From Escherichia coli O157:H7 (GTDB lineage: Bacteria > Pseudomonadota > Gammaproteobacteria > Enterobacterales > Enterobacteriaceae), in NCBI RefSeq assembly GCF_013167455.1, contig NZ_CP038328.1: a stretch of DNA of 64,000 nucleotides, one strand, 5' to 3'. Positions 40,076 through 46,225 of this stretch are shown in pieces. Below the pieces are notes generated by a model. That model saw only the letters and a list, made by a program, of their open reading frames with translations, was not told the origin of the DNA and did no database searches. Position 1 is the first letter of the stretch. Every line of letters begins with the position of its first letter. The position numbers and the translations under genes were made by a program.

Positions 40076-41041
40076 CTACAAATCCAACACCAGGCGTTTA
40101 CCCTTCGCACGCGAACAACAGATCAACATACTTTGCTGGCTGGCACGCTCTTCATCGCTAAAATACTGATCCCGATGGTCAGCTTCACCTTCCAGTATTG
40201 CCGTTTCGCAGGTTCCGCATACCCCTTCACGACATAAACATTCCACTTTCGCGGCTTTATTATTTTCAATAACCTGCAAAATAGTCATCTCTTCCGGCAC
40301 CACAAACTCTTTTCCGGAACGGGCAAGCACCAGGGTAAATGCATCGCCGGTTTTGTCTTCGATAGCAAATTGCTCAAAGTGCAGCGTATCGGCAGCGATG
40401 TCCAGACGCGCAGCTTCACTTCTTACCGCTTCAATTAGCGCCTCGGGGCCACAGGTATAAACGTGTGTGCCAGGTTCGATATCCGCCAATAATCGCGCTA
40501 ATTCCAGTCGTGTTCCGGTCGATGATTGATGCAAATGGACTTTCTCAGCCTGCGGATGCTGGACTAGCTCATCACGAAATGCGCAACTTTCTGGATTTCG
40601 CGAGCAGTAATGTAGCTGCCAGTCGACGTCGCTGTGTTGCAACTCTGCCATGTGCGACAGGAAAGGGGTGATACCAATACCGCCCGCGATAAACAGATGC
40701 TTTCTGGCTGAGGGAATTAGCGCAAACAGGTTATTAGGCGTTGAGATCGTTAACCGATCGCCCACTTTTACCTGCTGATGCAAAAAGCGGGAACCGCCGC
40801 GCGAGTTTTCTTCCAGTCGAACGGCAATCTGATAACTAGAGGTGTTATGCGGTGAACTCAGTAGTGAATACGCATTACTGTACTGGTTATCACCATCGCT
40901 CATCTGCACTATGATGTGACTTCCTCCGGTGAACGCAGGCAGCGGTTTGCCATCGGTTGCCACCGGCGTGAAGCGTTTCACCTGTTCGGTAAGCGGTTCC
41001 ACCTGACTCACCTGTACTTCAAACATTTGATAGTCTGACAT
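40076..41041 (-). CDS. yeaX: Carnitine monooxygenase reductase subunit (ferredoxin-NAD(P) reductase with C-terminal 2Fe-2S)
   Basis: 321 aa; C-terminal plant-type ferredoxin cysteines (CREGVCGTCE). Confidence 0.9.
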   Translation of the reverse strand: MSDYQMFEVQVSQVEPLTEQVKRFTPVATDGKPLPAFTGGSHIIVQMSDGDNQYSNAYSLLSSPHNTSSYQIAVRLEENSRGGSRFLHQQVKVGDRLTISTPNNLFALIPSARKHLFIAGGIGITPFLSHMAELQHSDVDWQLHYCSRNPESCAFRDELVQHPQAEKVHLHQSSTGTRLELARLLADIEPGTHVYTCGPEALIEAVRSEAARLDIAADTLHFEQFAIEDKTGDAFTLVLARSGKEFVVPEEMTILQVIENNKAAKVECLCREGVCGTCETAILEGEADHRDQYFSDEERASQQSMLICCSRAKGKRLVLDL

Positions 41042-41096
41042 TGCTGTACTCCATCAAAAATCAGCCCGGCGGCGGAAAATACCGCCGCCGATGTCA

Positions 41097-42221
41097 TTAG
41101 TCCTTAAATACCTGCGCCAGCAGATTATGGAAATGGGCGATACCATGTTCGGAAATGCCGCTACCGCTACTGTCGGCCATGATGCGCCCCTGACCACGAT
41201 AGCCACGCGATTTCAGCCCTTTCTGTACGCTTTCAACCAGACGTAAATCTTCCGGACGGAACACATCGCGATACCACTCAATCAGCGATTTTTGCTCGTC
41301 GGTTAACTCTTCATTGGTGAAGTAAATATCGTAGTTTTGCAGGGTAGTTTCAGAATCCACCGGGAATTCATAAATGACCGTCATCATCCCTTTGATCGGG
41401 GTGACATTCAGCATCGTGCACGGCCACAGCCAGAAACCGTGGAATGCCGCATCCGTACCCTCTTCAAATTTAAACGACTGTTCGGACGGTTTGGCGAAAC
41501 CGTATTGCAGCGTCCAGTTACCGTGCATGGTGTGCCAGTAACGATCAACCTGTACGGAGTCGGAGAAACCTGGATGCGCCGGACCACAGTGATAGCACTC
41601 GAGATAGTTATCGACAATGTTCTTCCAGTTGGCAGGCGTGCGGGTGGTAAAGCGGGCCGCCAGTTTCAGATCGTGGACTTCCGGGCAGGCTTCCAGCACT
41701 TTCGCGCCCAGACCGGGTAACTGATCTTCTACGCTGGTGGCGTTGGGGTCCATGTTGATGAAGACGAATCCGGCATATTCTTCCAGACGCACCGGAACCA
41801 GTTGCGCTTTGTCGCTATCGAAATTGGCGACGTTTTCGCAGTTACGTGCATGGGCCAGATTGCCATCGAGTTTGAATGCCCATGCGTGATATGGGCAGGT
41901 AATCACATTTTTTGCTTTTCCTTCACCGCTCAACAACTGATGACCACGGTGCGGACACACGTTATAGAACGCGCGCAAAACCTTATCACGACCGCGTACC
42001 AGCACGATGCTTTCGCCAATGATCTCACGCGTCACATAATCATTGGCATTCGCCAGTTCGCTGCTGTGAGCGACGCAAATCCAGCTTTTGGCGAAGACGT
42101 TCTCTTTTTCGTGTTCAAAGGCGTTCTGATCGGTATAAAAACGGGCAGGAATGGTCCACGCCTCTTGCGGGTTAGCGCAAAAATTTTCGGGTAGTACAAA
42201 GTCAGGGCTCAGATTGCTCAT
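41097..42221 (-). CDS. yeaW: Carnitine monooxygenase oxygenase subunit (Rieske non-heme iron)
   Basis: Track ORF trimmed to ATG 42221 (MSNLSPDFVLPENF..., 374 aa); Rieske motif CPHRGH...CPYHAW. Confidence 0.9.
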   Translation of the reverse strand: MSNLSPDFVLPENFCANPQEAWTIPARFYTDQNAFEHEKENVFAKSWICVAHSSELANANDYVTREIIGESIVLVRGRDKVLRAFYNVCPHRGHQLLSGEGKAKNVITCPYHAWAFKLDGNLAHARNCENVANFDSDKAQLVPVRLEEYAGFVFINMDPNATSVEDQLPGLGAKVLEACPEVHDLKLAARFTTRTPANWKNIVDNYLECYHCGPAHPGFSDSVQVDRYWHTMHGNWTLQYGFAKPSEQSFKFEEGTDAAFHGFWLWPCTMLNVTPIKGMMTVIYEFPVDSETTLQNYDIYFTNEELTDEQKSLIEWYRDVFRPEDLRLVESVQKGLKSRGYRGQGRIMADSSGSGISEHGIAHFHNLLAQVFKD

Positions 42222-42252
42222 AGGGATACCTTTATCGTTAGGATGATGGCGC

Positions 42253-44094: not shown

Positions 44095-44113
44095 CAAATA
44101 AACTGGTTTGACC

Positions 44114-45199
44114 TTAACGCAAAATAATTTTGCAAATCGCGTCGGCAACCTGTGGCGTGGTGGCACTGCCTTTCATATCCGGTGTTTTCGGCCCGTGAGC
44201 AATCACTTCTTCAATCGCTGCCAGAATACCGTTATGCGCTTGCTGGAAACGCTCATCGCCATTGCCGAGAAAATCGAGCATCATTGCCCCGGCCCAAATT
44301 GTGGCGATAGGGTTAGCAATATTTTTCCCGTAGATATCCGGCGCGGAACCGTGGACAGGCTCGAAGAGCGAGGGGAAAGTGCGTTCCGGATTCAGGTTGG
44401 CGGATGGGGCAATGCCAATGGTGCCGGTGCAGGCCGGGCCAAGATCGGAAAGGATATCGCCAAACAAATTGGACGCCACCACCACATCGAAGCGTTCCGG
44501 CTGCATCACAAAACGCGCGCAGAGAATATCAATATGCTGCTTGTCCCAGCGGATCTCCGGGTAATTCTCGGCCATTGCTTCCACTCGCTCATCCCAGTAC
44601 GGCATGCTGATGGCTAAACCGTTTGATTTAGTGGCAGAAGTTAGCGTCTTACGTGGGCGGCTTTGCGCAAGTTCGAAGGCATAACGCAAAATGCGATCGA
44701 CACCACGACGCGTAAATACCGATTCCTGAATGACGACTTCATGCTCTGTACCTTCATTCACTCTACCGCCGAGCGAGGAATATTCGCCTTCGGTGTTTTC
44801 CCTGACCACGTAAAAATCGATGTCGCCAGGCTGTTTTCCCGCCAGCGGGCAGGGAACGCCAGGAAAGAGACGAACCGGGCGCAGGTTGACGTACTGGTCG
44901 AATTCACGACGAAATTTCAGCAGCGAACCCCACAACGAAATATGGTCCGGAACGGTGTCCGGCCAGCCGACGGCACCAAAATAGATGGCGTCGAAACGGC
45001 TAAGTTGCTCATGCCAGTCGTCCGGCATCATTTTACCGTGATGGCTGTAATACTCGCAGCTCGCCCACTCCATTTGCTCAAAACTCAAGGCGAAGCCCCA
45101 GCGCTCAGCGGCAGCCTGTAACACGCGAATCCCTTCAGGAAGGACTTCTTTGCCAATCCCGTCTCCCGGGATCGCAGCAATACGCATCGTTTTCATCAT
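44114..45199 (-). CDS. dmlA: D-malate dehydrogenase (decarboxylating), isocitrate/isopropylmalate dehydrogenase family
   Basis: 361 aa; divergent from the LysR regulator dmlR. Confidence 0.9.
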   Translation of the reverse strand: MMKTMRIAAIPGDGIGKEVLPEGIRVLQAAAERWGFALSFEQMEWASCEYYSHHGKMMPDDWHEQLSRFDAIYFGAVGWPDTVPDHISLWGSLLKFRREFDQYVNLRPVRLFPGVPCPLAGKQPGDIDFYVVRENTEGEYSSLGGRVNEGTEHEVVIQESVFTRRGVDRILRYAFELAQSRPRKTLTSATKSNGLAISMPYWDERVEAMAENYPEIRWDKQHIDILCARFVMQPERFDVVVASNLFGDILSDLGPACTGTIGIAPSANLNPERTFPSLFEPVHGSAPDIYGKNIANPIATIWAGAMMLDFLGNGDERFQQAHNGILAAIEEVIAHGPKTPDMKGSATTPQVADAICKIILR

Positions 45200-45301
45200 T
45201 GGGTTCTCACTTCCTGACCATCAAAATTGACAACATCACCATCCTATAATTGACTGAAAAGGAATTAATCCCCGTAACTGGTGAAACATAAAACACGAAT
45301 C

Positions 45302-46225
45302 ATGAATAATTTACCGCTGCTGAATGATTTGCGCGTCTTTATGCTGGTGGCTCGCCGGGCTGGTTTTGCCGCCGTGGCGGAAGAACTGGGCGTTTCACCG
45401 GCGTTCGTCAGCAAGCGCATCGCCTTGCTGGAGCAAACGCTAAACGTGGTGTTGTTACACCGCACCACCCGCCGCGTCACCATTACCGAAGAAGGAGAGC
45501 GGATTTATGAATGGGCGCAGCGGATTTTGCAGGATGTCGGTCAGATGATGGACGAACTTTCTGACGTGCGTCAGGTGCCACAGGGGATGCTGCGTATTAT
45601 CAGCAGCTTTGGTTTTGGACGACAGGTGGTGGCTCCGGCGTTATCAGCGCTGGCGAAGGCGTATCCGCAACTGGAATTACGTTTTGATGTGGAAGACCGG
45701 CTGGTCGATTTGGTCAATGAAGGTGTCGATCTCGATATTCGCATTGGCGATGACATCGCCCCTAATTTAATCGCCCGCAAACTGGCGACCAATTACCGCG
45801 TTCTCTGCGCGTCGCCGGAATTTATTGCGCAACATGGCGCGCCGAAACATTTAACCGATCTTTCTGCATTGCCGTGCCTGGTCATTAAAGAGCGCGATCA
45901 TCCTTTTGGTGTCTGGCAATTACGCAATAAAGAAGGCCACCATGCGATTAAAGTCACCGGCCCACTGTCGTCTAATCATGGAGAAATTGTCCATCAGTGG
46001 TGTCTCGATGGGCAGGGGATTGCTCTGCGTTCCTGGTGGGATGTTAGCGAAAACATTGCCAGTGGTCATTTAGTGCAAGTGCTACCGGAATATTACCAGC
46101 CAGCGAACGTCTGGGCCGTTTATGTTTCAAGGCTGGCGACGTCAGCGAAAGTGCGGATAACGGTAGAATTTTTACGCCAGTATTTTGCCGAGCACTACCC
46201 GAATTTTTCACTGGAGCATGCCTGA
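45302..46225 (+). CDS. dmlR: LysR-family transcriptional regulator DmlR
   Basis: Track ORF trimmed to ATG 45302 (MNNLPLLNDLRVFMLVARRAGFAAVAEELGVSPAFVSKRI HTH, 307 aa). Confidence 0.9.
   Translation: MNNLPLLNDLRVFMLVARRAGFAAVAEELGVSPAFVSKRIALLEQTLNVVLLHRTTRRVTITEEGERIYEWAQRILQDVGQMMDELSDVRQVPQGMLRIISSFGFGRQVVAPALSALAKAYPQLELRFDVEDRLVDLVNEGVDLDIRIGDDIAPNLIARKLATNYRVLCASPEFIAQHGAPKHLTDLSALPCLVIKERDHPFGVWQLRNKEGHHAIKVTGPLSSNHGEIVHQWCLDGQGIALRSWWDVSENIASGHLVQVLPEYYQPANVWAVYVSRLATSAKVRITVEFLRQYFAEHYPNFSLEHA

Follow-up and report, generated by a model that had tools for sequence, protein, structure and literature searches.

A closely related, well-described counterpart of the locus reported here is the carR / mdh-bcct-hyd-cntA-msadh-cntB operon of Acinetobacter baumannii and A. 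nosocomialis (Zhu 2014; Breisch 2022; Piskol 2024, PMC11353897). In A. baumannii, L-carnitine is converted to trimethylamine (TMA) and malic semialdehyde, the semialdehyde is turned stereospecifically into D-malate, and a decarboxylating D-malate dehydrogenase carries D-malate on to pyruvate (PMC11353897). The same work states that five of these genes have orthologues in Escherichia coli (PMC11353897), and the YeaW/YeaX pair of E. coli K-12/DH10B is a flavin mononucleotide (FMN) / [2Fe-2S] / Rieske / Fe carnitine monooxygenase with an activity of ~1.3-1.5 µmol min-1 mg-1 (PMC9508527). We analysed the corresponding locus of E. coli O157:H7, which occupies positions 40076-46225 (6150 bases) of a 64,000-nucleotide stretch of contig NZ_CP038328.1, called the window below. 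It holds a divergent LysR regulator followed by the genes for a D-malate dehydrogenase, a transporter, an oxygenase and a reductase, in the Acinetobacter-type order. We consider it very probable that this locus is a reduced enterobacterial version of the Acinetobacter-type aerobic L-carnitine cluster, in which YeaV, YeaW and YeaX would serve the conversion of carnitine to TMA and to which DmlA and DmlR are linked. The five genes, in coordinates of the window, are as follows.

40076-41041, minus strand: yeaX (cntB), 321 amino acids, the reductase subunit of carnitine monooxygenase, dependent on reduced nicotinamide adenine dinucleotide (NADH) and of the FMN/[2Fe-2S] type (Pfam and RefSeq)
41097-42221, minus strand: yeaW (cntA), 374 amino acids from ATG, the Rieske-type oxygenase subunit of carnitine monooxygenase
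42253-43863, minus strand: yeaV, 536 amino acids, a full-length BCCT-family transporter and presumed carnitine importer
44114-45199, minus strand: dmlA, 361 amino acids, a decarboxylating D-malate / tartrate / 3-isopropylmalate dehydrogenase
45302-46225, plus strand: dmlR, 307 amino acids from the RefSeq start, a LysR-type transcriptional regulator

Many E. coli O157:H7 chromosomes contain the region with 100% identity, and RefSeq gives its genes the names yeaX, yeaW, yeaV, dmlA and dmlR; the cluster is flanked by rnd and fadD at one end and by leuE and yeaR at the opposite end. The five open reading frames (ORFs) are real genes rather than chance ORFs. Transcription runs from yeaV through yeaW to yeaX, with dmlA upstream of yeaV on the same strand and dmlR divergent from dmlA. 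A preliminary description, made from the sequence alone, had assigned these gene names and domains, and both were borne out by Pfam matches, RefSeq annotation and exact coordinates; the domain search that it proposed found Rieske in YeaW (9.7e-24) and BCCT in YeaV (1.9e-121). It had also pictured an operon followed by a divergent dmlA/dmlR pair, which was right for dmlR, whereas dmlA precedes yeaV on the same strand. Two longer gene models were rejected: a 414-amino-acid yeaW from TTG 42341, which overlaps yeaV and for which RefSeq and the homologues favour the start at 42221, and a 314-amino-acid dmlR from GTG 45281, for which they favour the start at 45302. As an item of annotation, the region is the O157:H7 copy of the known, annotated yeaV-yeaW-yeaX / dmlA / dmlR cluster; it is ordinary, of textbook level and nothing new in kind. 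What the present analysis adds is modest, namely the D-malate link, an allele census, the damaged copy in K-12 MG1655 and BL21(DE3), and an O157 reductase substitution.

In addition to its Rieske domain, YeaW matched Ring_hydroxyl_A (5.6e-23), and it shared 73% identity with A. baumannii CntA, whose structure is solved (6Y8J; E = 9e-197). Our reference list of residues was taken from the CntA structure paper (PMC7948474), which gives the Rieske ligands as C86, H88, C106 and H109, the iron triad as H208, H213 and D323, and, beside a bridging Glu205, an adjacent cysteine pair, C206/C209. The counterparts of all of these were present in YeaW as C89/H91/C109/H112 (motif CPHRGHQLLSGEGKAKNVITCPYH), H211/H216/D325, E208 and C209/C212, respectively. 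The nine pocket residues defined by the carnitine-bound CntA structure (Y203, Y225, F258, N270, Y295, Y315, F319, F216 and F247) were all identical in YeaW. Judged by these residues, YeaW is a CntA/YeaW oxygenase subunit, a group V Rieske oxygenase, and alignment to CntA upheld the earlier statement that its catalytic motifs are intact for every Rieske, iron and bridging residue. The protein was 100% identical in O157, K-12 and BL21, and the YeaW of commensal strain SE11 has the same accession, WP_000067822.1. Purified K-12/DH10B YeaW depleted carnitine and O2 and formed TMA (PMC9508527), and it is because this published biochemistry used an identical oxygenase sequence that the enzymatic claim can be made for the O157:H7 protein.

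The reductase, YeaX, matched the Pfam families Fer2 (1.9e-14), NAD_binding_1 and, marginally, FAD_binding_6 (21.9 bits against a cutoff of 21.1), and it matched phthalate dioxygenase reductase (2PIA) over its full length (1.9e-54). Its C-terminal plant-type 2Fe-2S motif, C270-X4-C275-X2-C278-X29-C308, is complete, and the sequence contains R271, K313 and D320, docking residues that matter by mutagenesis (PMC9508527). On alignment no Rieske or 2Fe-2S cysteine was lost in YeaW or YeaX, a loss that the preliminary description had named as evidence that would contradict it. Its wider statement that all catalytic motifs are intact was correct for every motif residue, but outside the motifs the O157 YeaX carries an unusual substitution, L26P, which is considered below.

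In YeaV, the BCCT match extended over profile positions 3-485 of 485, and the NCBIfam YeaV equivalog (NF007412) scored 1033 bits (cutoff 647) over 536 of 536 positions. The protein aligned to the solved transporters DddT from residue 16 and CaiT from residue 26, and it was identical to the YeaV of SE11, which also has the full-length form. It was 54% identical to the Acinetobacter carnitine transporter, an orthologue characterised as a carnitine carrier (PMC11353897). For carnitine transport by YeaV itself there is an indirect metabolomic hint, obtained by overexpression in a K-12 background (PMC10971958). From these similarities, YeaV is presumed to be a carnitine importer.

DmlA matched Iso_dh in Pfam (4e-88) and the tartrate dehydrogenase equivalog TIGR02089 in NCBIfam (564 bits against a cutoff of 470), and was related to tartrate dehydrogenase 3FLK (7.6e-195); DmlR contains HTH_1 and LysR_substrate. 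The two proteins are orthologues of Acinetobacter MDH and CarR, respectively. Synteny was examined by a YeaW/CntA alignment scan with one genome per species, which gave 80 loci, followed by ORF-by-ORF BLAST. The order dmlR(divergent) / dmlA-bcct-(hyd)-cntA-(msadh)-cntB was found in Escherichia (4 species), Citrobacter, Shimwellia, Xenorhabdus, Acinetobacter and Psychrobacter, and the divergent position of dmlR was kept in all examined clusters that have dmlA. Because this synteny is conserved and the Acinetobacter pathway has been published (PMC11353897), we conclude that dmlA and dmlR belong to the pathway and form the downstream half of a carnitine pathway cluster, not a separate module. The earlier view of a carnitine cluster lying next to a D-malate module thus had the adjacency right, but treated as a neighbour what is part of the same conserved cluster.

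The gene for malic-semialdehyde dehydrogenase, msadh, lies between yeaW and yeaX in many Citrobacter and Xenorhabdus (the msadh-bearing loci are L010, L012-L015, L020-L022, L024, L025, L027 and L028), with a product 60-64% identical to the Acinetobacter enzyme. Among the clusters examined, it was absent from all Escherichia, some Citrobacter, two Xenorhabdus and Shimwellia, and hyd, the gene for acylcarnitine hydrolase, was found in none of the enterobacterial clusters. Homology links the 55 bp between yeaW and yeaX in E. coli to the spacer that separates msadh from yeaX in Citrobacter, and msadh-less Citrobacter retain the last bases of msadh, GGCTGTAA, after the yeaW stop; from the spacer homology and the residual bases we therefore conclude that msadh was lost, rather than never present. 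A stand-in may exist elsewhere in the genome. E. coli GabD, a succinic-semialdehyde dehydrogenase, is 62% identical to the Acinetobacter malic-semialdehyde dehydrogenase and keeps its catalytic Cys and Glu and three substrate-binding residues, with only the cofactor-specificity position differing (A. nosocomialis numbering), and it is on this comparison a plausible substitute for the lost enzyme. The ratios of nonsynonymous to synonymous substitution rates (dN/dS) against E. albertii were 0.081 for yeaX, 0.012 for yeaW, 0.035 for yeaV, 0.030 for dmlA and 0.018 for dmlR, in or near the range of the neighbouring genes rnd (0.017) and leuE (0.014). Such low values (0.012-0.081) indicate that the genus has maintained the function of the cluster genes even though msadh was lost.

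The loss of a dedicated msadh in Escherichia would also be expected if the real substrate in E. coli were gamma-butyrobetaine, or another quaternary amine, rather than L-carnitine. YeaW and YeaX would then yield TMA and succinic semialdehyde, which GabD or Sad would convert to succinate, so that msadh and DmlA would be unneeded; the known activity of GabD fits such a route, and E. coli makes gamma-butyrobetaine from carnitine anaerobically by means of the cai genes. The first description of YeaW/YeaX, by Koeth et al. in 2014, reportedly presented them as a gamma-butyrobetaine-using enzyme. The introduction of one paper describes CntA orthologues, that of E. coli included, as highly active on both substrates (PMC9508527). 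The linkage of cntAB to a D-malate dehydrogenase and its regulator in six genera, including 4 of the 4 Escherichia species sampled, points away from gamma-butyrobetaine, because a D-malate dehydrogenase fits a hydroxylated C4 product and only carnitine gives one; the identity of the YeaW pocket to that of carnitine-bound CntA points the same way. We regard the replacement of carnitine by gamma-butyrobetaine as the real substrate as unlikely, and the two substrates are not mutually exclusive.

With L-carnitine as substrate, the pathway would begin with import by YeaV, as its resemblance to the Acinetobacter carrier suggests. Electrons from NADH would pass through the FMN and [2Fe-2S] centres of YeaX to the Rieske cluster and mononuclear iron of a trimeric YeaW, which would use O2 to hydroxylate carnitine, giving TMA and malic semialdehyde; this chemistry was shown in vitro for the identical YeaW paired with the K-12 YeaX allele (PMC9508527). 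Because Escherichia lost the in-cluster dehydrogenase gene, an enzyme encoded elsewhere would be needed to turn malic semialdehyde into D-malate, GabD being the obvious candidate. DmlA would then convert D-malate to pyruvate and CO2, a reaction known for the E. coli enzyme, and DmlR probably controls both dmlA and yeaVWX, judging from the conserved synteny and from a 13-mer shared by their upstream regions. This 13-mer and the other candidate regulatory features of the locus are the following.

41066-41091, minus strand: GC-rich stem-loop followed by GCUGAUUUUU, terminator- or attenuator-like, in the 55-bp yeaW-yeaX spacer (terminator scan)
43957-43985, minus strand: putative yeaV promoter, with -35 TTGTTT (43985-43980) and -10 AATAAT (43962-43957) separated by 17 nt
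44003-44015, minus strand: 13-mer TTCGTGTTTTATG, a candidate LysR-type regulator site upstream of yeaV
44073-44095, minus strand: intrinsic-terminator-like hairpin 18 nt past the dmlA stop, with a 10-pair stem and a T-rich tail (terminator scan)
45287-45299, minus strand: the other copy of TTCGTGTTTTATG, between the divergent genes dmlR and dmlA, inside the 21 bases that precede the dmlR ATG and two bases away from it

The hairpin at 41066-41091 lies directly 5' of the yeaX ribosome-binding site and has a predicted fold of -28.4 kcal/mol (z = -4.8). Its stem was kept with compensatory changes in Escherichia and Citrobacter, with or without msadh, and it may tune the reductase:oxygenase ratio via partial termination or mRNA stabilisation. 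The hairpin after dmlA was likewise kept in Escherichia and Citrobacter, and other hairpins stood at the same place in Shimwellia and Xenorhabdus. Within the 250-bp dmlA-yeaV spacer, blocks were conserved as far as Xenorhabdus, and it is this Escherichia-to-Xenorhabdus conservation that marks TTGTTT-17 nt-AATAAT as a putative yeaV promoter. The 13-mer had just two exact copies in the window, and both blocks that contain it were conserved, the yeaV one across genera and the dmlR one in enterobacterial homologous regions. Local alignment of the two intergenic regions gave a score reached by 8 of 2000 shuffles, and with two mismatches allowed the 13-mer was not enriched in the window (4 matches against 2.3 expected); supported by the exact pair and the shuffle test, it is a lead, not a result. 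It suggests that one regulator, presumably DmlR, could act at both promoters. In O157 Sakai, yeaV and yeaW were among the genes that change at growth transitions (PMC2241611).

These intergenic features bear on an account in which dmlA and dmlR are an independent module for D-malate, tartrate or leucine salvage, and their adjacency to yeaVWX is merely historical. The terminator-like hairpin after dmlA and the separate 250-bp region upstream of yeaV agree with such independence, whereas the 13-mer common to both upstream regions does not. DmlA is said, after Lukas et al. in 2010 and Vorobieva et al. in 2014, to be a generalist, and dmlA reportedly allows growth on D-malate, which induces it via DmlR. 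PMC11353897 repeats the generalist description and also demonstrates D-malate as a product of carnitine breakdown. The regulator-dehydrogenase-transporter-oxygenase-reductase arrangement has been kept in six genera, and in the ~1057 E. coli genomes that lack the cluster (see below) the five genes are missing together. On balance we think it very unlikely that dmlA and dmlR are an independent module, and we continue to treat all five genes as one carnitine pathway cluster.

E. coli strains that have the cluster differ in the transporter gene, through the segment

43734-43959, no strand assigned: 226-bp segment kept here and deleted in K-12-type genomes (alignment, junction sequence and counts)

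whose breakpoints were set by reading both sequences and counting junction and segment matches. Its deletion takes codons 1-43 of yeaV, the ribosome-binding site and 96 bp upstream; the K-12-type junction has a 1-nt microhomology, and one breakpoint lies inside the putative yeaV -10 hexamer. Population counts were made in 5426 complete E. coli genomes. The cluster (at least 80% of the region) was present in 4366 of them, yeaV was intact, with the 226-bp segment present, in 2929 (54%), and the K-12-type deletion junction was found in 1438 (26%), including K-12 MG1655 and BL21(DE3). The cluster was absent from ~1057 genomes (19.5%), in which only short dmlA and dmlR remnants remain between rnd and leuE; since these remnants are at the rnd-leuE site, cluster loss is secondary. 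In one cluster-less strain, Eco889 (locus L003, 9003-9326), 156 bp of dmlA and the final 168 bp of dmlR are left. In BL21(DE3) and in a K-12-like strain, RefSeq labels the truncated gene 'yeaV, missing N-terminus' and its PGAP annotation treats it as a pseudogene, and the MG1655 record annotates a 481-amino-acid YeaV despite the deletion. Full-length yeaV and the upstream blocks were found in the outgroups E. albertii, Citrobacter, Shimwellia and Xenorhabdus, and the form of yeaV in O157:H7 is therefore the ancestral one. In the species representative of Escherichia whittamii (locus L007, ~8450-9970), yeaV may contain a frameshift or stop, since the longest ORF matching it begins ~500 bp late.

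Several observations weigh against the reading of this locus as an Acinetobacter-type carnitine cluster at work in E. coli. Growth on carnitine has not been reported for any E. coli, with K-12, B and BL21 negative, and a BL21 extract had no detectable activity (PMC11353897). Given the terminator-like hairpin that separates them, dmlA and yeaV are not one transcript, and a scan for consensus sigma-70 promoters called none upstream of either gene. By tblastn, no homologue of malic-semialdehyde dehydrogenase or of acylcarnitine hydrolase was present in the 64-kb window. With a yeaV deletion in 26% of genomes and loss of the cluster in 19.5%, E. coli is either losing the cluster or able to do without it. 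Finally, at position 26 of YeaX, a conserved hydrophobic core position in the KRFT[LF] strand, all 61 homologues compared had Leu or Phe and O157 has Pro, a change that could weaken the reductase in the O157 lineage. This allele is marked by two codons in particular.

40964-40966, minus strand: codon of L26P in yeaX, an O157-lineage substitution
40844-40846, minus strand: codon of D66N in yeaX, an O157-lineage substitution

In all, the O157 YeaX differs from that of K-12 at five positions (L26P, V43I, D66N, C69S and H172Q). Position 66 was Asp in 56 of 61 homologues and is Asn in O157. In an AlphaFold2 model (predicted local distance difference test, pLDDT, 84), residue 26 is central to strand 21-28, which belongs to the FMN-binding barrel. 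The Pro26 allele was present in 297 genomes and Leu26 in 4067, out of ~4366 that bear the cluster, and the 30 Pro26 genomes that were sampled were all O157:H7 or resembled O157 in genome size and source. The Leu/Phe-26 column was derived from our homologue alignment and is not a published family-defining motif, so it is no bar to membership of the O157 protein in the YeaX family. From the alignment and the model, the O157 YeaX may be a hypomorphic reductase.

Much of this evidence could also be read as showing that E. coli retains the cluster only as a cryptic, decaying remnant, hardly expressed and giving little TMA, which would at most trim the intracellular carnitine pool used as a compatible solute (Piskol et al. 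2024, PMC11353897). To the lack of growth on carnitine and of activity in BL21 extract may be added the finding of no conditions with substantial cntA transcription in GEO (PMC11353897), and the loss of msadh, the yeaV deletion in 1438 genomes, the loss of the whole cluster in ~1057 and the L26P change of O157 YeaX would all be expected of a remnant. It is harder to reconcile with the strong purifying selection seen on all five genes since the split from E. albertii, with a YeaW that is identical in O157, K-12, BL21 and SE11, and with upstream regulatory blocks conserved out to Xenorhabdus. It also counts against a remnant that at least two of the three growth-negative strains (K-12 MG1655 and BL21(DE3)) have the yeaV deletion, and this truncation is not mentioned in PMC11353897. 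E. coli K12 (DSM 10517) appears as a confirmed carnitine degrader in a review table that cites Rath 2017, and we set this entry aside as a sign of native activity because in that study its DNA served only as a quantitative polymerase chain reaction (qPCR) standard. Overall, we find it rather doubtful that the cluster is a mere remnant, and retain the view of a reduced carnitine cluster.

That view can be carried further, in a form that we put forward only as a speculation and think quite unlikely to hold in full. In strains with intact yeaV, the five genes would form a single regulon under DmlR that takes up L-carnitine and converts it to TMA and pyruvate (micro)aerobically, with GabD or Sad replacing msadh, and the negative results on expression, activity and growth with K-12, B and BL21 would be an artefact of the 226-bp deletion, which takes away the first helix of the transporter, its ribosome-binding site and half of the putative -10 element. 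If this is true, metagenomic counts of cntA would need to be split by yeaV allele in order to predict TMA output, and within O157:H7 the Pro26 form of the reductase may in turn dampen the pathway.

The distribution of these alleles is of some practical importance. TMA made from carnitine by gut bacteria feeds the host level of trimethylamine N-oxide (TMAO), which has been linked to cardiovascular disease, and most cntA sequences amplified from human stool were from E. coli (PMC5433236). In E. coli, the cntA/yeaW marker occurs in three states: the cluster may be intact, may have a truncated transporter gene beside a damaged promoter region, or may be missing. K-12 MG1655 and BL21(DE3), and so at least two of the three laboratory strains with negative physiology, have the truncated form, and the states of the locus indicate which strains are suitable for physiological work.

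Some differences were also seen in genes around the cluster. The diguanylate cyclase gene dgcP (~48370-49395, minus strand) is an annotated pseudogene with an internal stop in O157:H7 and is intact in K-12, BL21 and Eco889. In BL21(DE3), yeaR is split by an IS421 insertion (locus L005, 23966-25674), and SE11 has an IS200/IS605 element between yeaQ and a yoaG homologue (locus L087, 584-2225).

Compared with known systems, the cluster is closest in sequence to b1799-b1803 of K-12, which occupies the same locus between rnd and leuE. YeaW was 100% identical to the K-12 protein, and DmlA, DmlR and YeaX differed from theirs by 1, 3 and 5 residues, respectively; K-12 lacks the 226 bp and has a yeaV of 481 amino acids or a pseudogene, whereas O157:H7 has the full 536-amino-acid yeaV. 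With the Acinetobacter operon, the O157:H7 cluster shares five core genes, arranged and oriented alike, and the enzyme chemistry; compared with A. nosocomialis, the regulator is 45% identical, the D-malate dehydrogenase 72%, the transporter 54%, the oxygenase 73% and the reductase 52%. The Acinetobacter operon has hyd and msadh, whereas the O157:H7 cluster has neither and is thus not a complete Acinetobacter-type carnitine catabolic operon. The spacer between dmlA and the transporter gene is 250 bp long with a terminator-like hairpin here and 20 bp long in Acinetobacter, and growth on carnitine has been shown for Acinetobacter but for no E. coli. The closest complete versions of the cluster are the dmlR / dmlA-yeaV-yeaW-msadh-yeaX clusters of Citrobacter and Xenorhabdus, which keep msadh between yeaW and yeaX where Escherichia and some Citrobacter have lost it. 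These clusters have the same intergenic architecture as E. coli, including the hairpin before yeaX, and YeaW is 91-94% identical in those Citrobacter loci that stand nearest to E. coli.

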